DNA of 64,000 bases from Bacteroidia bacterium (GCA_045805205.1 JBJMLR010000001.1:120677-184676), one strand, 5' to 3'; counted from the first letter of the stretch, positions 43,481-60,459 are shown. Numbers and translations: made by a program. The notes: generated by a model not told the origin, from the sequence alone.

Positions 43481-44341
43481 ATGTCTCACCGTTCCGGACT
43501 CCCAATTTCTCTATTCATCCTGGCCATCAGCCTCTCGTCCTGTAACAGTGATAAGCCCGTAAAAGAGAACGTACTGACGACCGAAGATTCCCTCGCGATG
43601 GTTGATAATACCACAACTGTTGAAAGTAAAGGGAAGTTCGACATGGTCATCAGTGATATCCCTTTCCCGTTCGAGATCCTGGATAATTTATACACTAAGC
43701 ACGTTCCCTTTGAAGTGAAAGCGATGAATCCGACATCGCAGGCTTCAAAATATAATCAATACAACTCCAAAGCGCTTAACCTCGGTATTTATGGTGCGGA
43801 TCTCGCCTATGCCGTTACTTACGAGCAGTTCCAGGAGATCGGAGGATATGTAAAAACAACCAAGCGGCTGGCGGAGGATCTGAATATTCCTTATGCATTT
43901 GACGACAGCATGATGGATAAATACAACAAGTTCAAGGATAATAAGGATTCTCTCACAAAAGTCGTTTATGATTCTTATAACCAGGTCGACAAAGCCCTGA
44001 AAGGGGATGAAAGAGTCGGAATGGCTGCATTGGTGGTGACCGGCAGCTGGCTGGAAGGACTCTATTTGTCGACCCAGGCATTCCTTGACGTTGAGAAAAC
44101 GCCGGAAAACAGCGGAATGTACAAGACCATCCAGGAGCAGAAGCAGAGTTTAGTGATCGTGATAAAGCTGCTCGATGAATATAAGAATGATCCTTATATC
44201 GGCCGTTTGATCGATGAGCTCAAAGGCATTACGGCTGAGTATAACCATATTACTTCCGATGAAACGATGAATGAAAAGCAGCTGATCACGATCCATTCCA
44301 AGGTGGAAGCGCTGCGGATCAAGATTGTTGAAGGTCTCTGA
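43481..44341 (+). CDS. hypothetical lipoprotein
   Basis: Signal with lipobox LSSC; no recognisable domain. Confidence 0.35.
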   Translation: MSHRSGLPISLFILAISLSSCNSDKPVKENVLTTEDSLAMVDNTTTVESKGKFDMVISDIPFPFEILDNLYTKHVPFEVKAMNPTSQASKYNQYNSKALNLGIYGADLAYAVTYEQFQEIGGYVKTTKRLAEDLNIPYAFDDSMMDKYNKFKDNKDSLTKVVYDSYNQVDKALKGDERVGMAALVVTGSWLEGLYLSTQAFLDVEKTPENSGMYKTIQEQKQSLVIVIKLLDEYKNDPYIGRLIDELKGITAEYNHITSDETMNEKQLITIHSKVEALRIKIVEGL

Positions 44342-49508: not shown

Positions 49509-49979
49509 ATGAGCACTCTAGTCGGACAAAAAGCCCCTTTATTCTCTCTTAAGGATTCAGATAAGAACCTTGTTAATCTTGCCGACTACAAAGGCAAGAA
49601 CGTCGTATTGCTATTCTTTCCTGCTGCATTCACAGGCACCTGCACCAAAGAGTTGTGCCAAACCCGTGACGAGCTGTCGTACTATAATGATCTGAATGCA
49701 GTTGTATTCGGAATTTCAGTGGACATGCCCTTCACGCTTGCAAAGTTCAAGGAAATGAACAATTACAATTTTCAGCTGCTTTCTGATTTCAATAAAGAAG
49801 CGTCAACTGCCTACAACTGCATCTACAAAGAGTGGATCCACGGTCTGCGTGGCGTCAGCAAGCGCGCTTCATTCGTGATCGATAAGGAAGGTGTTGTCCG
49901 TTTTGAGGAGATCCTGGAAGATGCCGGTTCTTATCCGAACTTCGATGCATTGAAAGATGCTTTGAACAAGCTGAAGTAA
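49509..49979 (+). CDS. peroxiredoxin, BCP/PrxQ-like (AhpC/TSA family)
   Basis: FTGTCTKELC active site with C-x4-C spacing; thioredoxin fold. Confidence 0.75.
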   Translation: MSTLVGQKAPLFSLKDSDKNLVNLADYKGKNVVLLFFPAAFTGTCTKELCQTRDELSYYNDLNAVVFGISVDMPFTLAKFKEMNNYNFQLLSDFNKEASTAYNCIYKEWIHGLRGVSKRASFVIDKEGVVRFEEILEDAGSYPNFDALKDALNKLK

Positions 49980-50040: not shown

Positions 50041-50650
50041 CATGTGCTCTGCGCTCTCCGCGCCTCTGCGAGACTCCTTTTTTCTGCGGCACTTTACGTA
50101 AACCTCCGTGCCCTCTGCGGTTAAAAACATACACCGCTCTGCGCTCTCTGCGCCTCTGCGAGACTCCTTTTTTCTGCGGTACTTTACGTAAACCTCCGTG
50201 CTCTCTGCGGTTAAAAATATTACACCGCTCTGCGCTCTCCGCGTCTCTGCGAGAATCATTTTCTCTGCACTCGACGTAAACCTCCGTACCCTCTGCAATT
50301 AAAAACATACACCGCTCTGCGCTCTCTGCGCCTTTGCGAGAATCCTTCTCCGCGGTACTTTACGTAAACCTTCGTACCCTCTGCAATTAAAAACAAACAC
50401 CGCTCTGCGCTCTCTGCGCCTCTGCGAGAATCCTTCTCCGCGGTACTCCGCGTAAACCTCCGTGCTCTCTGCGGTTAAAAATATTATACCGCTCTGCGCT
50501 CTCCGCGAGAATCCTTCTCCGCGGTACTCTGCGTAAACCTCCGTGCTCTCTGCGGTTAAAAATATTACACCGCTCTGCGCCCTCCGCGTCTCTGCGAGAA
50601 TCCTTCTCCGCGGTACTCTGCTTAAACCTCAGCGCCCTCTGCGGTTAGAA
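50041..50650. repeat. imperfect ~88-bp tandem repeat array, 7 copies
   Basis: Units start at 50041, 50132, 50223, 50310, 50398, 50488, 50568 (periods 80-91); each carries several CTCTGCG heptamers and a TTTACGTAAA palindrome (intact in 3 copies). Confidence 0.9.
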
Positions 50651-50653
50651 ACA

Positions 50654-51370
50654 CTATACAGTGACTATCGCGAAAGCAGCACCCAAAATGATCATCACGA
50701 ACTTGATCAGGTTGAAGCGGTGGTTCTCGCTCGACTCAAAAAGAATGGTTGTGGAGATGTGAAGAAAGATCCCGACCACTACGGCCATGATCGTATCCGT
50801 ATATTGGGCGAGATTGAACAGCATATTGGCGCCGATCGCATAGCTGGTGAATGTGCCCAGCGGCGTTACCAAAGCAAATACAAAAAGCCAGAATACAGCT
50901 TGTCCTTTGCTGATATGCGAGCCGAGGAGCATGGTCATCAGTGCAACGGCGATCGGGATATTGTGCATGATAATGCCGGTGAGCAAGGAATTGTGCGATT
51001 CCGACGTTCCGTTTGCAAGCGGCATCCCTTCCAGGAAAGAATGAATGGAAAGCCCGATCATCATCGCATACGGAAATGCATTGTGCTGGTGGTCATGTTT
51101 ATGAATGTGGATATGCCCGTGCTCGATCCCTTCCGTAAAGAACTCCAGGAGGATCTGCGCAAAAAAACCGATAAGAATGAAAACACCTATGTTCTTCGTC
51201 TGCGACTGGTAGATCTCAGGAATGAGATGAAGTACGCTGATCGCAAAAAGAAATGCTCCGCTGAAGGAGAGGATGAGCTTGAGGTTTTTGCTGCTGATGT
51301 TAATGTAAAGCACGCTCGTTCCGCTGACGATAACAGAGAGGAAAAGGAGAATGTACATTAATGTGTTCAT
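50654..51370 (-). CDS. ZIP family metal (zinc) transporter, ZupT-like
   Basis: 8 TM; His-rich loop HGHIHIHKHDHQH; HNIPIAVALM signature. Confidence 0.8.
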   Translation of the reverse strand: MNTLMYILLFLSVIVSGTSVLYINISSKNLKLILSFSGAFLFAISVLHLIPEIYQSQTKNIGVFILIGFFAQILLEFFTEGIEHGHIHIHKHDHQHNAFPYAMMIGLSIHSFLEGMPLANGTSESHNSLLTGIIMHNIPIAVALMTMLLGSHISKGQAVFWLFVFALVTPLGTFTSYAIGANMLFNLAQYTDTIMAVVVGIFLHISTTILFESSENHRFNLIKFVMIILGAAFAIVTV

Positions 51371-52290: not shown

Positions 52291-53691
52291 ATGTCAAAGA
52301 ACAATCAAATGGCTCCGGTTGATTGGCGAGACGAGCTGAAAGCTGCTGCTTTTCGCTATCATGTGCTCATCGCGTGGGTTGCTGTTGGACTCAACCCGAT
52401 CTGGGCCGTCGGAGATTTTTTCAATAGTCCCAATCACTTTTTCGATTTTCTTGTATTCAGGATCGCAGTTTCCCTGGCGACACTGATCGCTGTGCTGATG
52501 AAAGGAAAGCTTCGTCAGCGGCCGGAGATCATTGCGCTCGTTCCGTTCATCGGCATCTCCATCCAGAATGCATATATGTTCAGCGTCATGAACATTAATG
52601 AATTGCAAAAACATACGTTCGCTTATATCGCTTTGTTCATCGGAGCAGGAATGTTCGTGCTCTGGCGCCCCGTTTATTCCGTCCTGATCGTAGTCGTTTC
52701 ACTCATTGCCAACATCGTTTTCTTTGCGCTCTTCGGACATCTGAAGGTCGGCGACATATTGATAAACGGAGGAATGCTTGTATTCTCCGTCGCACTTTTT
52801 ACGATCCTGCTGATCCATACCCGCTATAATCTGAATAAAAAAGAAATTATTGCCCGTCTTGCACTTGCCGAGTCCTACAAGGAGCTTGCTGTAAAGAACG
52901 AGATCATCGAAGAGAAGAGCAAAGATATCCGTGACAGCATTAATTATGCGCAGCGTATCCAGCAGGCGATCCTTCCGCCGTTTGAGCGGATCGACAAGCT
53001 GCTGAATGATTATTTTATTTTGTTCAAGCCAAAAGATGTGGTCAGCGGAGATTTTTACTGGCACACCGCTGTGACCACCACAAAAGGAAATGGCAGCGAG
53101 GAAAAAGTAGTGATCATGGCAGCTGTGGATTGCACGGGTCACGGGGTTCCCGGCGCGCTGATGAGCATTATCGGAAGCACGATTCTCAACCAGACAAGCA
53201 CGGCAGTGAGCGTCAATTCTCCTGCAGATGCGCTTGGATACCTGAACAAGGAAATTACGAAAACGCTCAATTCCATTAAGGACGGAATGGACATGGCGCT
53301 GTGTGCGATCAATTTCGAAAAGATGGAACTGCAGTACGCCGGCGCAAACAACCCGCTTTACATTGTGCGCCAAAAGCAATTCATCGAGGTGAAGCCCGAT
53401 AAAATGGCAATTGGAGCCGACACGGAAGGTGCGGCAGAAAAGGTTTTTACGAATCATGTCGTTAAGCTTGAAAAGGGAGATTCGATCTATCTCTTTACCG
53501 ATGGTTATGCGGACCAGTTCGGCGGACCGAACGGAAAGAAATTCAAATACAAGAAATTCCAGGAGCTGCTGATCGAGATCCAGGACAATAGCATGGAAGA
53601 ACAAAAGCATATCCTCAACTATCATCATGAGCAGTGGAAAGGAAAGCTCGAGCAGGTTGACGATATCCTCGTGATCGGTATCCGGGTTTAA
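52291..53691 (+). CDS. membrane-sensor PP2C/SpoIIE-family serine phosphatase (SiaA/RsbU-like)
   Basis: N-terminal ~190 aa with about 6 TM helices; C-terminal PP2C motifs DVVSGDFYW, AAVDCTGHGVPGALMS, DGYADQFGG. Confidence 0.75.
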   Translation: MSKNNQMAPVDWRDELKAAAFRYHVLIAWVAVGLNPIWAVGDFFNSPNHFFDFLVFRIAVSLATLIAVLMKGKLRQRPEIIALVPFIGISIQNAYMFSVMNINELQKHTFAYIALFIGAGMFVLWRPVYSVLIVVVSLIANIVFFALFGHLKVGDILINGGMLVFSVALFTILLIHTRYNLNKKEIIARLALAESYKELAVKNEIIEEKSKDIRDSINYAQRIQQAILPPFERIDKLLNDYFILFKPKDVVSGDFYWHTAVTTTKGNGSEEKVVIMAAVDCTGHGVPGALMSIIGSTILNQTSTAVSVNSPADALGYLNKEITKTLNSIKDGMDMALCAINFEKMELQYAGANNPLYIVRQKQFIEVKPDKMAIGADTEGAAEKVFTNHVVKLEKGDSIYLFTDGYADQFGGPNGKKFKYKKFQELLIEIQDNSMEEQKHILNYHHEQWKGKLEQVDDILVIGIRV

Positions 53692-53828
53692 TTATTCCTT
53701 CACCACAAAAACACAAGAAGCACCAGCTCTTATTGATTTCTCCGTGCCCTAAGTGCATTAGTGGTATGAATTCCGTCTATCCCCTGATCCCCTCATCGCC
53801 CTCCTCCGCCACCTAATCACTTTTTCCC

Positions 53829-53836
53829 TATATTTA
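53829..53836 (+). promoter_or_regulatory. -7-like box TATATTTA with a conserved upstream element
   Basis: aatcactttttccctatattta closely matches gattactttttcctatatttg at 3040-3059. Confidence 0.35.
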
Positions 53837-53841
53837 CTTCG

Positions 53842-56800
53842 TTGAATAGATTTTGCTCCATATACACCCGCATTTGCCTTTGCATAACACTGGTTTCCGG
53901 CGTTATTCCGGCCTCTTTTTCACAGGAATTTAAGTTCAGCCACATCGGATCAGATCAAGGCTTGTCGATGGGTGTGGTTAACTGCGTTCTCCAGGATAGC
54001 CGCGGATTCATGTGGTTCGGGACACAGGACGGACTGAATAAATACGATGGGTACAACATCACTGTTTTTAAGAATAACCAGCTCGATTCCAATACGCTTT
54101 CGAATAATTTCATCAACTGCCTGTACGAGGATAAAAATGGCGAGCTTCTCGTCGGTACCAACGGCGGCGGTTTTGATTCGTATAACCTCAGCACCGGTAA
54201 ATTCAAGCATCACATCGGCTCGGGAGCCAACAAAAACAGCCTGAGCAACAACAATGTAAAATCACTGCTGGAGGACAGAGACGGAATGCTCTGGATCGGT
54301 ACGGATGATGGCCTGAACAGTTTTGATCCGAAAACCAGGCGGTATTCGCGCTACCTGAACGACAGTAAAATCGTCAATACCATTTCCAGCAACAATGCAT
54401 GGTGCCTTCACGAAGGAAGCGATGGAAAGCTCTGGATCGGAACGTACGGAGGAGGATTGAACTCATTCGATAAGAAAACAGGAAAGTTCGAACATTTTTA
54501 CCAGTTCAACGACCGGGGTGAATTGATGTTCGACAACATTAATCTCATCCGCTCCATTTATGAAGATGCGGACGGAATATTCTGGATCGGAACGTACGGA
54601 GAAGGTGTTCAGATCTTTGATCCGCATTCGGGCCAGTTCATCAGGAATCTCCGCAATAATCCGAATGATCCCAATTCCCTGAACAATAACCAGGTGATGA
54701 GCATCACCGAAGATATGAACGGGATGCTGTGGATGGCGACGTACGGAGATGGCTTGAATCTCTACAATAAAAAAACCGGTCGCTTCAGAAGCATCACCTA
54801 CGATGAAAAAAATCCATCCGGTATTTCCAGCAACCAAATCAAGTGTGTGTATCACGATAAGGTCGGATCGGTATGGATCGGCACCGAAGGCGGAGGTGTG
54901 AACGCGCATTTCCGTGCGTCCAATAAATTTAAATTCTATCGCAATTCCGGGGAAGCAAACGGCTTAAAAAGTAACATCGTTTATGCATTGCAGGAGGACA
55001 AGGACGGCTTGCTCTGGATCGGAACGGGGCATGGCGGGCTGACCACTTTCGACCGGGAGAATAATATTTTTCAGCATTATCCGCAATTGTCTACATCCGG
55101 TAATAATTCGATCCTTTCTCTGTGTGAGGACCGCGATGGGATCATCTGGGTAGGAACCTGGGGCGACGGTCTGAATTCATACGATAAGAAGACGAAGCGG
55201 GTGACGAATTACGAGCAGAAGCTGAAGCAGGCAAAGGAAGCAAACGATGCGGTATTCGATCCCGTGAGCGCTGCTACGATCGTTTCGATCATGGAAGATT
55301 CTGAAGGAAAGATCTGGGTAGGAACCTATGGTGCAGGCGTTTTCGTTTACAATAAAAAGACAGGAAAATTCACTAATTATGATGCATCCAAAGGTTTGAG
55401 CATCGATAACGTTTATAATGTTTATGAAGATGGTCAGAAGAATTACTGGATCGCAACGGATGGAGGAGGAGTTGTAAAATACAATGAATATGCTAATGTT
55501 TTCAGAATCTATGCGCGTGATGAAAAAGCGAACAGCATCAGTTCCAATTCGGTGAATTGCAGCTATGAAGATAAAGATGGAAACATGTGGTTCGGAACAT
55601 CAAATGGCCTGAACCGGCTGGATGTGAAGACAGGAAAATTCAGTGCGTACTTCGAAAAGGATGGATTGCCGAATGATTTTATATACTCGATCCTGCCCGA
55701 CAGCAAAGGAAATCTCTGGATGAGCACGAATAAAGGTGTCTCCAAATTTAATCCGAACATGACGAACGAGAACGGATCCGCGTTCAGAAATTATGATGTC
55801 AATGATGGTTTGCAGGGACTTGAATTTAACCAGGGTGCTTATTATCAAAGCAAAGGAGGAGAGATCTTCCTGGGAGGAGTGAACGGCTTCAATGCGTTCT
55901 TTCCCGATAAGATCCAGGATAATCCGAACATTCCGCCGGTGCACATCATTTCATATAAACGTTTCGGAACCGAAGTAATGCTCGATACACTGATCTACGA
56001 CAAAAAATACCTGGAGCTTTCCTATAAGCAGAACTTCTTCTCTTTCGATTTTGTTGCGCTGGACTACCAGATGCCGGGGAAGAATAAATATTCCTATAAG
56101 CTGGAAGGAGTGGACGATGACTGGTCGCCGCCGAGCACAACCCGTTACGCAAGCTATACCGAGCTGAGCGGAGGTGATTACATTCTTAGGGTCCGGGGAG
56201 CCAATAACGACGGGACCTGGAACAATGACGGCGTAACGCTGTACATCCGGATCAATCCGCCGTTCTGGAAAACGAAATGGTTCTATGCTCTGAGTGTTCT
56301 TACGATCATAGCAGGATTTGCGGGATTTGTGAGATACAGGACCAGCGCGATCAAACGGGAGAAGAAGATCCTTGAAGAGAAAGTGGAAGAGCGGACACAG
56401 GAGCTGGCGCAGAAGAACAAGGATATTACCAGCAGCATTCAATATGCGAAACGGATCCAGCTTGCGATCCTGCCGCCGCTGGAGCAGATCTACAAATATT
56501 TTCCGACTTCCTTTGTGCTGTACAAACCGAAGGACATTGTCAGCGGCGATTTCTATTGGTTCGGAGTGAAGGACGGCAAGCGCATCATTGCGGCTGTAGA
56601 TTGTACGGGTCATGGAGTTCCCGGGGCCTTCATGAGTATGATCGGACATAATTTATTGAACCAGATCATCGGGGAAAACGGGATCACGGAACCGGATGAA
56701 ATCCTGAATGCGCTGCACAGAGGCGTGCAGTCGGCATTGCGACAGGGAACAAATATAGTGGACACGAGCGATGGTATGGATGTGGCGATCTGCTGTATTG

Positions 56801-57177
56801 ATGAAAGCAATGCTGAATTGACCTATGCGGGAGCTTATCGTCCGTTGTTTATTGTCAGGAACGGGGTGCTGGACAAGATCGAAGCGGATAAGAATCCTAT
56901 CGGGGGCTCTCAGCTGGATGCGGACCGGAAATTTACAGCTCATAAGGTAGTGATCGGTAAAGGAGATACTATTTATATGGCTTCCGATGGGTATGCCGAT
57001 CAGTTTGGCGGCGACAAAGGCAAAAAATTCATGATAAAACGCTTCCATGAGCTCATTCTGTCTATGCAGCAGGAGCCGATGGAAGAGCAGTGCCGTATAC
57101 TGGATCGTACATTTGAGGAGTGGCGCGGGGTTTATCAGCAGGTGGACGATATCCTGGTGATCGGGATTCGTTTCTGA
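53842..57177 (+). CDS. periplasmic Reg_prop beta-propeller plus Y_Y_Y sensor, TM, PP2C/SpoIIE serine phosphatase
   Basis: 1111 aa; repeated D..G.(L/M)W(I/F)GT..G(L/V)N.(Y/F)D propeller blades; Y_Y_Y domain; single TM (ALSVLTIIAGFAGFV); PP2C motifs DIVSGDFYW, AAVDCTGHGVPGAFMS, DGYADQFGG; start is TTG per the ORF track and is uncertain. Confidence 0.75.
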   Translation: MNRFCSIYTRICLCITLVSGVIPASFSQEFKFSHIGSDQGLSMGVVNCVLQDSRGFMWFGTQDGLNKYDGYNITVFKNNQLDSNTLSNNFINCLYEDKNGELLVGTNGGGFDSYNLSTGKFKHHIGSGANKNSLSNNNVKSLLEDRDGMLWIGTDDGLNSFDPKTRRYSRYLNDSKIVNTISSNNAWCLHEGSDGKLWIGTYGGGLNSFDKKTGKFEHFYQFNDRGELMFDNINLIRSIYEDADGIFWIGTYGEGVQIFDPHSGQFIRNLRNNPNDPNSLNNNQVMSITEDMNGMLWMATYGDGLNLYNKKTGRFRSITYDEKNPSGISSNQIKCVYHDKVGSVWIGTEGGGVNAHFRASNKFKFYRNSGEANGLKSNIVYALQEDKDGLLWIGTGHGGLTTFDRENNIFQHYPQLSTSGNNSILSLCEDRDGIIWVGTWGDGLNSYDKKTKRVTNYEQKLKQAKEANDAVFDPVSAATIVSIMEDSEGKIWVGTYGAGVFVYNKKTGKFTNYDASKGLSIDNVYNVYEDGQKNYWIATDGGGVVKYNEYANVFRIYARDEKANSISSNSVNCSYEDKDGNMWFGTSNGLNRLDVKTGKFSAYFEKDGLPNDFIYSILPDSKGNLWMSTNKGVSKFNPNMTNENGSAFRNYDVNDGLQGLEFNQGAYYQSKGGEIFLGGVNGFNAFFPDKIQDNPNIPPVHIISYKRFGTEVMLDTLIYDKKYLELSYKQNFFSFDFVALDYQMPGKNKYSYKLEGVDDDWSPPSTTRYASYTELSGGDYILRVRGANNDGTWNNDGVTLYIRINPPFWKTKWFYALSVLTIIAGFAGFVRYRTSAIKREKKILEEKVEERTQELAQKNKDITSSIQYAKRIQLAILPPLEQIYKYFPTSFVLYKPKDIVSGDFYWFGVKDGKRIIAAVDCTGHGVPGAFMSMIGHNLLNQIIGENGITEPDEILNALHRGVQSALRQGTNIVDTSDGMDVAICCIDESNAELTYAGAYRPLFIVRNGVLDKIEADKNPIGGSQLDADRKFTAHKVVIGKGDTIYMASDGYADQFGGDKGKKFMIKRFHELILSMQQEPMEEQCRILDRTFEEWRGVYQQVDDILVIGIRF

Positions 57178-57386
57178 TCAGAATGATCGGCGAAAATGAC
57201 CTTCCACCAGGATGAGTCAGCCTGCCCAGAGTCCGCAGTAGCGGATCGAAGGGATATCCTGGTGATCGGGATCCGTTTCTGATCAGAATGATCGGCGAAA
57301 ATGATCTTACACCAGGATGAGTCAGCCTGCCCAGAGTCCGCAGCAGCGGATCGAAGGGATATCCTGGTGATCGGGATCCGTTTCTG
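57148..57386. repeat. 105-bp tandem duplication (about 2.3 copies) spanning the last 30 nt of the PP2C gene
   Basis: gatatcctggtgatcggga(t/c)(t/c)cgtttctga recurs at 57148, 57253 and 57358; each full unit has the 12-bp palindrome TTCTGATCAGAA. Confidence 0.9.
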
Positions 57387-57545
57387 AGGTCTTGCCTGCA
57401 CATTTTTCCATTTCTCCGCGACTTGTTTGGCAAATTGTAAAATTTAGCTATATTTGAGGCTAGGATAAGATTTTTAACGACGAAACTCAATAAACAAAGG
57501 TCCGCCCCGCGGGTCCAATTGTGTAAATCATAAAAACCTGACAAA

Positions 57546-58391
57546 ATGAAGCGCATATTCCATTCAACACTCGTACTTATCAGCGCAGTTACTGCGCTTA
57601 CGCTCAACTCCTGTAAAAAGGAAGAGCCGGACACGGAAACTCAATCGGCCGTCGATAACAGTCTTTGTGAAGGCGAATTCACAGGACGCATGCCGGTCAT
57701 TAACAGCATTGCGATCAAGGAACAGGGCGTAAAGTCGATGATGTCGGCAATGGCTACGATGTCTGGACAGCCTACTATCATTATCAACCCGGCAGATACG
57801 CTGGACGGTTTCCCGGTGACGATGATCCTGGATTACGGAACCGGAACAACCGACTCGATCGATGGAAAGGTCCGCAAAGGGCAGGTATCCTGCAAATTCA
57901 GCAATTCCTGGGATACGATCGGAAGCAACATTACGGTTAAGCTGATCAATTACTGGGTTGCGAAGAGCGCCGGTGCCCCATGGTGGAAATATGCATGTGA
58001 CAGTATCATGATCAAGCATACTGCGGCGTATTCGTATACGAACCAGATCATCGGAGGACACTGTAATAATTCGGCCGGAGATGTGAACCTGGATTGGGCA
58101 GCAACCAGAACGCTGACACAGACAGCGGGAATGGGCGACTACAACCCTTATAACGATGTGTTTGAATTCACGGGCAACGCACAGGGCAAGAACCGCGAAG
58201 GAAAACATTATACAGTAAATGTAACAGTACCGGTCATCAAAAAAGCGGCATGCACCTGGATCACGCAGGGAAGGATCGATCTGACGCCAGAAGGACTTGC
58301 AACCCGAACGGTTGACTATGGCGACGGAACCTGTGATGATAAGGCGACGCTGACCATCAACGGCAACACGTTCCAGTTTACAATGAACTAA
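57546..58391 (+). CDS. hypothetical lipoprotein
   Basis: MKRIFHSTLVLISAVTALTLNSC lipoprotein signal; Cys-containing body; no recognised domain. Confidence 0.35.
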   Translation: MKRIFHSTLVLISAVTALTLNSCKKEEPDTETQSAVDNSLCEGEFTGRMPVINSIAIKEQGVKSMMSAMATMSGQPTIIINPADTLDGFPVTMILDYGTGTTDSIDGKVRKGQVSCKFSNSWDTIGSNITVKLINYWVAKSAGAPWWKYACDSIMIKHTAAYSYTNQIIGGHCNNSAGDVNLDWAATRTLTQTAGMGDYNPYNDVFEFTGNAQGKNREGKHYTVNVTVPVIKKAACTWITQGRIDLTPEGLATRTVDYGDGTCDDKATLTINGNTFQFTMN

Positions 58392-58398
58392 AAGAAAG

Positions 58399-58423
58399 AA
58401 GGGCGAAACAGCCCTTTTTTTTT
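58399..58423 (+). terminator. hairpin plus T9 terminator
   Basis: aagggc-gaaaca-gccctt followed by ttttttttt. Confidence 0.5.
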
Positions 58424-58492
58424 AGATATTTTATAAGTTAAATTGAAGCCTGAAAAAAAGAGTACGAATGTTTGTTTAATTGACTTTATTTA

Positions 58493-58500
58493 TATATTTG
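58493..58500 (+). promoter_or_regulatory. -7 box TATATTTG upstream of the kinase gene
   Basis: Exact TAnnTTTG 51 nt before ATG at 58551. Confidence 0.4.
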
Positions 58501-58550
58501 CTTAATTAATAACCAGAATTATCAGCTTTATCGATTTAACTTAGCGTTTT

Positions 58551-59096
58551 ATGATGTTAGATATTTACGATTTTTACGATAAAATGGAGCGTAACAACAT
58601 TATGCTCTCTTTTAAAGGCGATATTACTTCTGAGTTACTTACCTCGATCCTGCAAATAATGGAATCCAAACTGGACAACTTGCAGGAAGAACCAAAGATC
58701 AAAAAGAAAGTTTACAATGTTTTAGTGGAGTGTCTTCAGAATCTATATCACCATATGGATGAAGTTGCTCCCGATCAGAACGATGTTACCCGTTCAGCTA
58801 TATTTATGATCGGGAAGATCGATAACCAGTATAACATTGTGACCGGAAATTATATTAAGAAAGAGAACGTAGAAGGTCTGAAAAAAAGACTGGAAGATAT
58901 TAACCAGTTAACAAAGGAGGAACTAAAAGAATACTACAAATCCGTGCTCAATAATGGAGAGATGTCTTTGAAAGGCGGAGGCGGATTGGGAATGATAGAC
59001 ATAGCACGTAAAACAGGAGAGAAATTGAATTTTAATTTTTCACCGGTCGATGATAAATTTTCATTTTTCAGTTTAAATATCAAAATATCACAATAA
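58551..59096 (+). CDS. GHKL-type anti-sigma/partner-switch serine kinase (RsbW/SpoIIAB-like; SiaB-family-like)
   Basis: 181 aa; N-box VECLQNLYHH (E-x3-N-x3-H) and G-box GGGGLGMIDIA. Confidence 0.55.
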   Translation: MMLDIYDFYDKMERNNIMLSFKGDITSELLTSILQIMESKLDNLQEEPKIKKKVYNVLVECLQNLYHHMDEVAPDQNDVTRSAIFMIGKIDNQYNIVTGNYIKKENVEGLKKRLEDINQLTKEELKEYYKSVLNNGEMSLKGGGGLGMIDIARKTGEKLNFNFSPVDDKFSFFSLNIKISQ

Positions 59097-59107
59097 CAAA
59101 AAAGATT

Positions 59108-59488
59108 ATGGAAACAATTTCAATTGAAGGAACACCAAAAACCCCAACCATCACTTTTGACACAGGGAAAGGATTTTTAGAGATCAAAGGACGCTCTATC
59201 CCTGAAAACTCTATCGAGTTTTACAAGCCATTAGTGGATTGGCTGGAAAAGTATGCGGCAAAACCTCAGTCAGCAACCAATGTTAATATTCAACTGGAAT
59301 ATTTCAACACGAGCTCATCAAAGTGTATCCTTGATGTATTCAAAAAGTTGGAAGCAATCAATAAAGGTGGAAGCGCAGTGGTGATCAACTGGTATTATGA
59401 AGAGGATGATGAGGATATGCTCGAAGCAGGTGAGGATTACCAGGCAATTATCAATGTACCATTCAAGATGGTGCAGGTAGCAGAATAA
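59108..59488 (+). CDS. DUF1987 domain protein (SiaC-like phospho-switch substrate)
   Basis: 126 aa; METISIEGTPKTPTITFDTGKGFLEIKGRSIPENSIEFYKPLVDWL matches the DUF1987 N-terminal pattern; 12 nt after the kinase gene. Confidence 0.55.
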   Translation: METISIEGTPKTPTITFDTGKGFLEIKGRSIPENSIEFYKPLVDWLEKYAAKPQSATNVNIQLEYFNTSSSKCILDVFKKLEAINKGGSAVVINWYYEEDDEDMLEAGEDYQAIINVPFKMVQVAE

Positions 59489-59850: not shown

Positions 59851-60459
59851 ATGAACGTACAGGAATATATCGATTCCGGAATACTGGAAACCTACGTGCT
59901 AGGCGTTTCCACAAAAGCGGAATGTGCGGAAGTGGAGCGTATGGCATCTGTTCACCCGGAGATCCGGTCGGAAATTGAAGCGATTGAATATGCCATGGAA
60001 AAATATGCCATGGATAATGCTGTACGGCCGCATGCTGCGATCAAGCCGATGCTCTTGGCCACCATCGACTATATGGAACGGATGCAGAACGGAGAACCTT
60101 CTTCTTTTCCTCCGATCCTGAATGAAAAATCCCGGCCGGAAGATTATTATCAGTGGATCAGCCGCAGCGATATGAACGTTCCGAACGATTTTGAAGAGCT
60201 CTTCGCCAAGATCATCGGTTATTCATCGGAGGTCACGTCTGCAATTGTATGGATCAAGCACATGGCTCCGCAGGAAGTACACGATGATGAATTTGAAAAA
60301 TTCCTGATCCTGGAAGGGACCTGCGATATCGTTATCGGCGAAAAGATCCACAAGCTTGTTCCCGGTGATTATTTCCAGATCCCCCTGCATGCAAAACACG
60401 AAGTAAGAGTCACTTCTTCCATTCCATGTAAAGTTATTCTGCAGAGAGTGGCAGCATGA
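59851..60459 (+). CDS. cupin-domain protein with ChrR-like anti-sigma architecture (N-terminal helical ASD-like domain plus C-terminal cupin)
   Basis: N-terminus YVLGVSTKAECAEVERMASVHPEIRSEIEAIE resembles anti-sigma N-domains but lacks the zinc HxxxCxxC motif; C-terminal cupin strands (GDYFQIPLHAKHEV). Confidence 0.35.
   Translation: MNVQEYIDSGILETYVLGVSTKAECAEVERMASVHPEIRSEIEAIEYAMEKYAMDNAVRPHAAIKPMLLATIDYMERMQNGEPSSFPPILNEKSRPEDYYQWISRSDMNVPNDFEELFAKIIGYSSEVTSAIVWIKHMAPQEVHDDEFEKFLILEGTCDIVIGEKIHKLVPGDYFQIPLHAKHEVRVTSSIPCKVILQRVAA

Follow-up and report, generated by a model that had tools for sequence, protein, structure and literature searches.

The closest described relative of the system reported here is SiaABCD of Pseudomonas aeruginosa (PA0172-PA0169), in which the small protein SiaC is phosphorylated at T68, SiaB being its kinase and SiaA its phosphatase (PMC7647112; PMC7278518). 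Similar components are found in the STAS-type partner switches (RsbU/RsbV/RsbW-sigmaB, SpoIIE/SpoIIAA/SpoIIAB-sigmaF and HsbR/HsbA), which are likewise built from a PP2C phosphatase, a Ser/Thr kinase of GHKL fold and a small protein serving as phospho-switch. We describe a locus from a Bacteroidia bacterium, contained in a stretch of 64,000 nucleotides (GCA_045805205.1, JBJMLR010000001.1:120677-184676; this whole stretch is called the window). Positions 52,291 to 59,488 encode, in this order, two phosphatases, a lipoprotein, a SiaB-family kinase and a SiaC-family protein. We consider it fairly probable that this locus is a SiaABC-type threonine-phosphorylation switch without SiaD, either lost or never present, to which an envelope-sensing input was added in this Bacteroidia lineage. 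A preliminary description of the locus had proposed a SiaABC-type phospho partner switch devoid of a GGDEF, STAS or sigma partner. This proposal is supported by the matches to SiaA, SiaB and SiaC in the PDB and NCBIfam databases and by the conservation of T68.

The window locus shares with SiaABCD a SiaA-type PP2C catalytic domain, a SiaB-family kinase and a DUF1987 protein with T68 in an NTSS motif. The genes of the kinase and of its substrate are adjacent in both systems, and the partner-switch logic, known here from sequence, is the same by homology. The differences are fourfold. There is no SiaD/GGDEF gene, neither in the 64-kb window nor in the 87 other loci; the inputs are a propeller of the type found in hybrid two-component systems (HTCS) and a polytopic membrane domain, whereas SiaA has its own sensor and a HAMP domain; a conserved lipoprotein gene is included in the cluster, with two or more phosphatases per switch; and all three component types score under the NCBIfam equivalog cutoffs. 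Unlike the STAS switches, the window locus has a switch protein that belongs to DUF1987 and contains no Pfam STAS domain (PF01740), it has no sigma partner, and its kinase was not detected as HATPase_c by sequence. By its membership, the module is not a STAS/sigma partner switch.

The conservation of the locus was studied in 88 loci, corresponding to the window and 87 SiaC-bearing relatives (designated by numbers such as L001), whose open reading frames (ORFs) were called crudely (longest ORF, greedy) and then clustered by similarity. The relatives of SiaC form 5,152 clusters at 50% identity. The locus search relied on an alignment of 14 close SiaC sequences, a version of 56 sequences being too diverse. 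A pattern scan of the GTDB species genomes gave at least 600 stretches, of which 585 were confirmed as SiaC relatives, and the best 80 of these stretches were kept for the survey. All 80 are Bacteroidota by label or evidently so (Bacteroidales, Flavobacteriales, Salinivirgaceae, Vicingaceae and unclassified Bacteroidia). The surveyed loci are the nearest relatives of the window locus, and many of their contigs are incomplete at the ends. Four of them (L025, L032, L017 and L034) carry the Bacteroidota-type module on contigs of metagenome-assembled genomes (MAGs) deposited as "Candidatus Saccharibacteria bacterium", "Synechococcus sp. UW140" or "Chitinophaga pinensis"; these records are probably mis-binned or mislabelled.

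The family-level matches of the module proteins in Pfam and NCBIfam have E-values between 1e-20 and 1e-77, far beyond chance. The 126-aa protein has PF09345 (SiaC/DUF1987) as its sole Pfam match, with 155 bits for a cutoff of 24.5, and it matches the SiaC structures of the PDB (6KKO_C/6KKP/7E6G) with an E-value of 7e-22, which establishes the DUF1987 identity first assigned to it. The SiaC equivalog model NF038265 gives a score of 104.7 for a cutoff of 150, and the protein is therefore considered as a member of the family, not as an equivalog. In the alignment with the structures, T68 of the P. aeruginosa protein (LNTSS) corresponds to T68 of the window protein (FNTSS). The conserved phospho-acceptor, whose location had been proposed as a check, is thus this threonine, which is invariant in 88/88 loci. 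It lies in a block, L63 to L75, that is essentially invariant: I74 is conserved in 86 loci and all the other positions in all 88. Over the whole protein, 55 of the 126 positions are at least 98% identical across the loci. Between distant genome pairs, the identity is of 71-79% for SiaC, 37-67% for SiaB, 53-60% for an ABCG-type ATP-binding cassette (ABC) protein encoded near some loci (see below) and 39-51% for the housekeeping methyltransferase RlmL. This constraint on SiaC suggests a conserved target encoded elsewhere; it fits a docking with the kinase, with several phosphatases and with a conserved effector.

Among the 150 nearest representatives of the SiaC family, whose long members were scanned, the fusions observed are SiaB-SiaC, tandem SiaC, HEAT-SiaC, SLT-SiaC and a weak HTH_8, and none of them joins SiaC to an enzyme domain that would name the effector. 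Representatives P0246, P0257 and P0263 are natural fusions that contain, respectively, SiaB and SiaC in one chain, SiaB with three SiaC, and HEAT repeats with two SiaC. Additional copies also occur beside the main pair, a few kb on its 5' side: a second SiaC (about 127-134 aa) in L051, L064 and L072, and a second SiaB (about 178 aa) in L079 and L084, in tandem with a PAS-PP2C and a YfiR-like-PAS-PP2C.

The product of the gene preceding siaC (181 aa) is recognized by DUF6272 (PF19788, 148 bits) and by the NCBIfam model NF038262 SiaB_fam_kinase (171.5 bits, cutoff 85), whereas the equivalog model NF038264 gives 97 bits for a cutoff of 225. P. aeruginosa SiaB (PDB 6KKO_A) aligns with it over the full length (E 2e-16). 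This product is identified by homology as a SiaB-family Ser/Thr kinase, for which SiaC would be the substrate. Its gene is immediately 5' of the SiaC gene in 84/88 loci, and the residues E60, Q63, N64, G144 and G147 are invariant. The kinase had been described as a GHKL protein of the RsbW/SpoIIAB type on the basis of an N-box (VECLQNLYHH) and a G-box (GGGGLGMIDIA), both present in the translation. By sequence, this assignment is not recovered: no match to HATPase_c_2 (PF13581) was reported at E<=0.01 in Pfam, the family is DUF6272/SiaB_fam, and a profile of the SiaB orthologues retrieved SiaB alone from the PDB and no other GHKL protein. It holds at the level of the fold, since the AlphaFold2 model (predicted local distance difference test, pLDDT, 82) has 6KKO_A as best match (TM-scores 0.80/0.85) and then SpoIIAB, RsbW and UsfX (probability 1.0, TM-scores about 0.5-0.6), followed by the ATP-binding domains of histidine kinases.

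The two adjacent phosphatases both contain the SpoIIE domain (PF07228) first attributed to them, with 73 bits for phosphatase 1 (residues 273-466) and 71 bits for phosphatase 2. The motifs KPKDVVSGDFYW / KPKDIVSGDFYW, AAVDCTGHGVPGA and DGYADQFGG are found in both translations; the two catalytic domains share 52% identity, and the four motifs of the metal site are retained in each. With the SiaA model NF038263, the catalytic halves align over the C-terminal half of the model, at 180 bits (phosphatase 1) and 207 bits (phosphatase 2), far below its whole-protein cutoff of 700. The catalytic domain of phosphatase 2 has a sole PDB match, the PP2C domain of SiaA (6K4E, E 4.5e-40). By homology, the catalytic domains of both proteins are of the SiaA type and would remove the phosphate from phosphorylated SiaC (SiaC-P); the input domains are unrelated to those of SiaA.

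These phosphatases differ by their input regions. The hydropathy of phosphatase 1 displays four strong and about two weaker transmembrane (TM) segments between residues 20 and 175, in agreement with the polytopic membrane N-terminus initially described, and this domain has no family match in Pfam and NCBIfam. For phosphatase 2, the architecture with a Reg_prop propeller, a Y_Y_Y domain and one TM helix is recovered in Pfam (Reg_prop in 12 stretches, 244 bits; Y_Y_Y at 741-804) and by the position of the helix. The homology of its residues 14-811 with the HTCS sensor of the BT4663 type extends from end to end (4A2L, E 1e-108; 3V9F, E 4e-93), and by homology to 4A2L the sensor would have two propellers. 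As in the HTCS of Bacteroides (BT4663, 4A2L/4A2M), the Reg_prop propellers and Y_Y_Y are followed by a TM helix, with a homology over the whole length; in contrast, the cytoplasmic output is only a PP2C domain, where the HTCS has HisKA/HATPase, receiver and AraC domains. Phosphatase 2 is a fusion of a sensor of the HTCS type with a phosphatase of the SiaA type, and the ligand of this sensor is probably an oligosaccharide or glycan.

The propeller-PP2C is encoded three genes 5' of SiaC in 30/88 loci, including 26 of the 33 lipoprotein loci whose upstream DNA extends over at least 6 kb. The membrane PP2C represented by phosphatase 1 adjoins SiaBC in 7/88 loci, all of them close relatives. Other SiaA-type PP2Cs are found beside a single SiaBC pair, with tetratricopeptide repeats (TPR; L009, where three phosphatases are in a row), with TPR and several GAF domains (L040), with HAMP (L016), with PAS, or with a YfiR-like domain and PAS (the latter two in L079 and L084). 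As these extra phosphatases adjoin one SiaBC pair, we infer that phosphatases with different sensors converge on a common switch. The preliminary description had proposed this convergence for the two sensors of the window; the idea of multiple inputs is retained, but only the propeller-PP2C is widely linked to the switch, the membrane PP2C being limited to the few loci mentioned above. In one surveyed locus (L006, 5305-8501; Sphingobacteriaceae-labelled MAG GCA_016709575.1), the propeller-PP2C is broken up into four ORFs, and the adjoining genes are fragmented as well, which suggests a frameshift-rich assembly or a pseudogenisation.

Between the phosphatases and the kinase, the cysteine-containing lipoprotein noticed at the outset is confirmed by a lipobox LNSC with the invariant C23; the alignment of its homologues reveals four more conserved cysteines and, after the lipidated cysteine, the conserved stretch CKKEEPDTETQSAVDN. 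The family is small (about 270 proteins), and the window protein is 100% identical to a protein from a MAG recorded at NCBI as "Bacteroidia bacterium". The model (pLDDT 88) consists of two helices and a 14-strand antiparallel beta-sheet. No family match was obtained in Pfam and NCBIfam for the protein and no specific fold match in the PDB for its model, in agreement with its description as an uncharacterised protein. The description has to be revised in that the protein does not interrupt the cluster: its gene is two genes 5' of SiaC in 42/88 Bacteroidota loci, and lookups centred on divergent lipoprotein homologues recovered the same four-gene module in 5/5 cases. The lipoprotein is a core component and the most faithful non-cytoplasmic member of the module. 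The identity to the window proteins is of 83-98% for SiaC, 76-97% for SiaB, 61-84% for the PP2C catalytic domain, 40-79% for the periplasmic sensor and 39-69% for the lipoprotein. In its rate of evolution, the lipoprotein resembles the periplasmic sensor and not the cytoplasmic parts. From its gene linkage, predicted location and evolutionary rate, we infer that it is an extracytoplasmic co-sensor or a ligand-presenting partner. An analogy can be drawn with the lipoprotein-assisted envelope sensors NlpE-CpxA and RcsF-IgaA, in which a lipoprotein has genetic or functional ties to a signalling protein of the inner membrane that possesses a periplasmic domain. The window lipoprotein, for which a coupling is proposed from gene linkage only, has no relation of sequence or fold to them.

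Two genomic contexts of SiaBC predominate. In the first (Type A, that of the window), the propeller-PP2C, the lipoprotein, SiaB and SiaC recur as a module amid variable flanking genes, and in one subclade these four genes are spaced by 0-40 nt. In the second (Type B), SiaBC is found between an RlmL-like methyltransferase gene and a convergent gene coding for an ABCG-type ABC protein of about 1030 aa; this ABC gene is present in 31/88 loci and is accompanied in 13-14 loci by genes of about 140 aa and 299 aa of no assigned function. The co-conservation of the neighbouring genes, proposed earlier as a check, is thus observed for the four genes of the Type A module; it does not extend to the membrane PP2C nor to the cupin gene that follows siaC in the window. 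The Type B upstream genes of about 509, 535, 195, 184 and 385 aa were considered as a missing output or phosphatase and rejected: they encode GuaA, an S41 protease, PnuC, a NadR-like AAA protein and the RlmL-like methyltransferase, and represent housekeeping synteny.

The translation of the window bears out the six ORFs initially called, all on the + strand (Table 1). The gap between siaB and siaC is of 11 nt and that between siaC and the cupin gene of 362 nt.

Table 1. Features of the SiaABC-type locus and of the following gene in the window.
Feature	Position	Strand	Description
Phosphatase 1	52291-53691	+	466 aa; about 6 TM helices with short loops, helical linker, SiaA-type PP2C domain (about 195-466)
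Phosphatase 2	53842-57177	+	1111 aa; signal/anchor helix, Reg_prop + Y_Y_Y sensor, TM helix (about 808-830), helical linker, SiaA-type PP2C domain (about 836-1111)
Lipoprotein	57546-58391	+	281 aa; signal peptide, lipobox LNS-C23
Terminator-like hairpin	58392-58423	+	13-bp stem and T-run (consensus scan)
SiaB-family kinase	58551-59096	+	181 aa; predicted GHKL/Bergerat fold, anti-sigma-kinase type
SiaC-family (DUF1987) protein	59108-59488	+	126 aa; T68 codon at 59309-59311
Cupin/anti-sigma-like protein	59851-60459	+	202 aa

Two repeats were observed in this region. At 57148-57387, a unit of 105 nt is repeated 2.3 times with 97% identity; its first part corresponds to the final 30 nt of the propeller-PP2C ORF, stop codon included (DILVIGIRF*), and the 3' end of this gene consequently recurs twice in the 368-nt spacer ahead of the lipoprotein gene. 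A recent tandem duplication may explain this repeat, as may an artefact of the assembly. At 50046-50653, a unit of about 88 nt is present in tandem in 6.9 copies (85% matches) and fills the gap between an AhpC/Redoxin gene (49509-49979, + strand) and a Zip transporter gene (50654-51370, - strand). This array is not a CRISPR, because the whole unit repeats without unique spacers; the relative L001 has a glycosyltransferase gene at its place.

The output of the switch was searched for in the whole window and in the surveyed loci. No GGDEF domain match and no GG[DE]EF motif were found in about 1.06 million six-frame residues (the 64-kb window and the 87 loci), and GGDEF was absent from the Pfam scans of the window ORFs located between 39 and 64 kb. 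The GGDEF query sequence was entered by hand, which can only lower the sensitivity. Searches of the window for STAS and sigma genes were also negative, STAS being sought using phmmer with a SpoIIAA sequence entered by hand, and none of these genes is a consistent neighbour among the 88 loci. The absence of GGDEF, STAS and sigma genes, first stated for the locus, is therefore borne out by scans of the entire 64 kb.

Genes of the latter two types were nevertheless encountered in some relatives. Factors of the extracytoplasmic function (ECF) sigma family are numerous in Bacteroidota; as partners of the switch they were rejected, being found in 10/88 loci only, in two unrelated arrangements, with none in the window. 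STAS genes were detected in 18 distant Type B loci only, 4 to 9 genes away from SiaBC, beside rpsA and beside an Hpt gene. In L071 (2465-2812 and 14766-15455) and in 17 other Type B loci, all from Bacteroidales-like MAGs, these single-domain STAS genes flank the SiaBC region. Given their distance and their absence from the window, they were treated as a separate system. The STAS/Hpt pairing is reminiscent of the HptB/HsbA-type partner switches linked to a phosphorelay and may constitute a second switch near SiaBC.

The following mechanism can be proposed for the SiaABC-type switch of the window. SiaB would phosphorylate SiaC at T68 and the PP2C proteins would reverse this phosphorylation. The 1111-aa phosphatase would read a periplasmic ligand through its HTCS-like glycan sensor, the 281-aa lipoprotein working with this propeller sensor on the extracytoplasmic side, and the 466-aa phosphatase would add a second, membrane-embedded input in the sublineage of the window. 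When the phosphatases outweigh SiaB, the unphosphorylated SiaC would bind and modulate a non-cyclase effector encoded elsewhere; the phosphorylation of SiaC by SiaB would release this effector and reset the switch. Since SiaC is near-invariant across Bacteroidota, it can be argued that the effector belongs to the conserved components of the cell and that several phosphatases share SiaC as a hub. More tentatively, SiaB and SiaC would form a phylum-wide hub gating a non-c-di-GMP (cyclic di-GMP) effector, for which the ABCG protein is the best positional candidate, with the lipoprotein and the HTCS-PP2C as an undescribed trans-envelope input; we regard this extended scheme as possible and give it limited credence.

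Several observations weigh against the proposed switch or its envelope input. The window is only a part of the genome, and a cyclase may lie elsewhere. The trio lipoprotein-SiaB-SiaC is found without an adjoining propeller-PP2C in L013, L018, L021 and L032-L034; the tie of the lipoprotein may therefore not be to the propeller sensor specifically, and its physical partner is uncertain. The lipoprotein also contains a CKKEE motif, which we take to be a possible surface-export signal (such a signal of lipoproteins was reportedly described by Lauber et al. in 2016). If this motif is indeed a surface-export signal, the lipoprotein could not touch an inner-membrane sensor directly. Finally, in the window, a terminator-like hairpin is situated between the lipoprotein gene and siaBC, directly after the stop codon of the former (Table 1). 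It may separate the transcription of the sensor genes from that of siaBC, or act between them as an attenuator. Similar T-tailed hairpins (dG <= -8 kcal/mol) are found 3' of the lipoprotein gene in 7 of the 39 Type A loci, mostly in the subclade of the window.

The effector in trans could more specifically be the ABCG/White-type ABC exporter operon of the Type B loci, gated by unphosphorylated SiaC. This operon encodes proteins of about 299, 140 and 1030 aa, the largest with an N-terminal extension, an ATPase and an ABC-2 membrane domain. Besides SiaB, the lipoprotein and PP2C, it is the commonest neighbour of SiaC (31/88 loci, usually convergent at the next position). It is present in 22 of the 37 lipoprotein-less loci with at least 4 kb of downstream sequence and in 7 lipoprotein loci, among which the closest relatives L002, L009, L011 and L012. 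The ABCG protein is fairly conserved (53-60%), with a cytoplasmic N-terminal extension of about 250 aa that is unexplained. On the other hand, this support is purely positional, the operon is convergent to siaC, which precludes a co-transcription of the two, and RlmL and other housekeeping genes are kept in the same block, which may indicate an inherited synteny. Moreover, the operon is not in the window, where only a lone gene similar to that of the 299-aa protein is found. The latter (43481-44341, 286 aa) has no family match, is homologous to the gene of about 299 aa (E 3e-29) and is located between M42 peptidase and GDPD-like genes. As the sole recurrent non-housekeeping candidate, the ABCG operon is only a lead, and its role as the effector is doubtful.

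The output could also pass through SiaB, the kinase sequestering a regulator such as a sigma factor in the manner of RsbW/SpoIIAB until unphosphorylated SiaC displaces this regulator. The anti-sigma kinases SpoIIAB, RsbW and UsfX are indeed the next-best folds of the SiaB model after P. aeruginosa SiaB, an anti-sigma-like protein and ECF sigma genes are encoded near some loci, and SiaC is STAS-like in structure (PMC7647112; PMC8457831). Nevertheless, ECF sigma genes are confined to 10 loci and absent from the 64 kb of the window, with no consistent sigma neighbour. SiaB is also far less conserved than SiaC (37-67% against 71-79%), although the reverse would be expected of a kinase holding the conserved target, and in P. 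aeruginosa it is SiaC, and not the effector, that SiaB binds (PMC7278518). For these reasons we judge this route unlikely.

A c-di-GMP output, produced by a SiaD-like cyclase whose gene would lie outside the window, has in its favour that the window covers only 64 kb of the genome. Against it stand the six-frame scans reported above, in which no GGDEF domain or motif was met, and the nearest 150 SiaC-family representatives, none of which is fused to GGDEF among the long members scanned. To our knowledge, GGDEF proteins are scarce in Bacteroidota. A c-di-GMP cyclase is the only output of SiaC that has been established experimentally (PMC8457831; PMC7278518), and for the window locus we nonetheless hold this output to be quite improbable.

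The preliminary description had also put forward the 202-aa cupin/anti-sigma-like protein as a candidate partner of SiaC, and this is the least credible of the possibilities: the gene is on the same strand, 362 nt 3' of siaC, and the protein is ChrR-like in architecture, with 76 N-terminal aa that share 46% identity with an RskA-type anti-sigma domain (beside an ECF sigma in L002) and a C-terminal cupin that accounts for its only family-model matches, but no sigma gene is next to it, no ECF-type sigma was detected in the 64-kb window, and the gene occupies this position in the window only, being replaced elsewhere by acyltransferase, HupE, DeoC, PriA, ABC or other genes. As the gene 3' of SiaC is variable, the cupin gene falls outside the system, and the cupin as a general output is largely refuted.

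The recognition of the module is not new, since PGAP (Prokaryotic Genome Annotation Pipeline) already names its proteins in Bacteroidota MAGs ("SiaB family protein kinase" and "DUF1987/SiaC"); the module itself is recognizable and already auto-annotated. In the literature searched, nothing was found on DUF1987, DUF6272, SiaB or SiaC outside P. aeruginosa, nor on propeller-PP2C proteins. The missing output, the rewiring of an HTCS sensor to a PP2C, the module-specific lipoprotein family and the exceptional conservation of SiaC appear to be undescribed so far.

The only role of SiaC/DUF1987 known from experiments is the activation of a single diguanylate cyclase in a single species, while at least several hundred species genomes of Bacteroidota contain a SiaABC-type switch. 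In the locus described here, the glycan-type periplasmic sensor of the Bacteroides HTCS has been rewired to a Ser/Thr phosphatase output, and a small lipoprotein family is defined that occurs only inside the SiaBC module. As no cyclase accompanies the switch and SiaC is conserved beyond a housekeeping enzyme, the SiaC family must have at least one other class of target. Finding this target would expose a general route of regulation in a phylum where c-di-GMP is little used.

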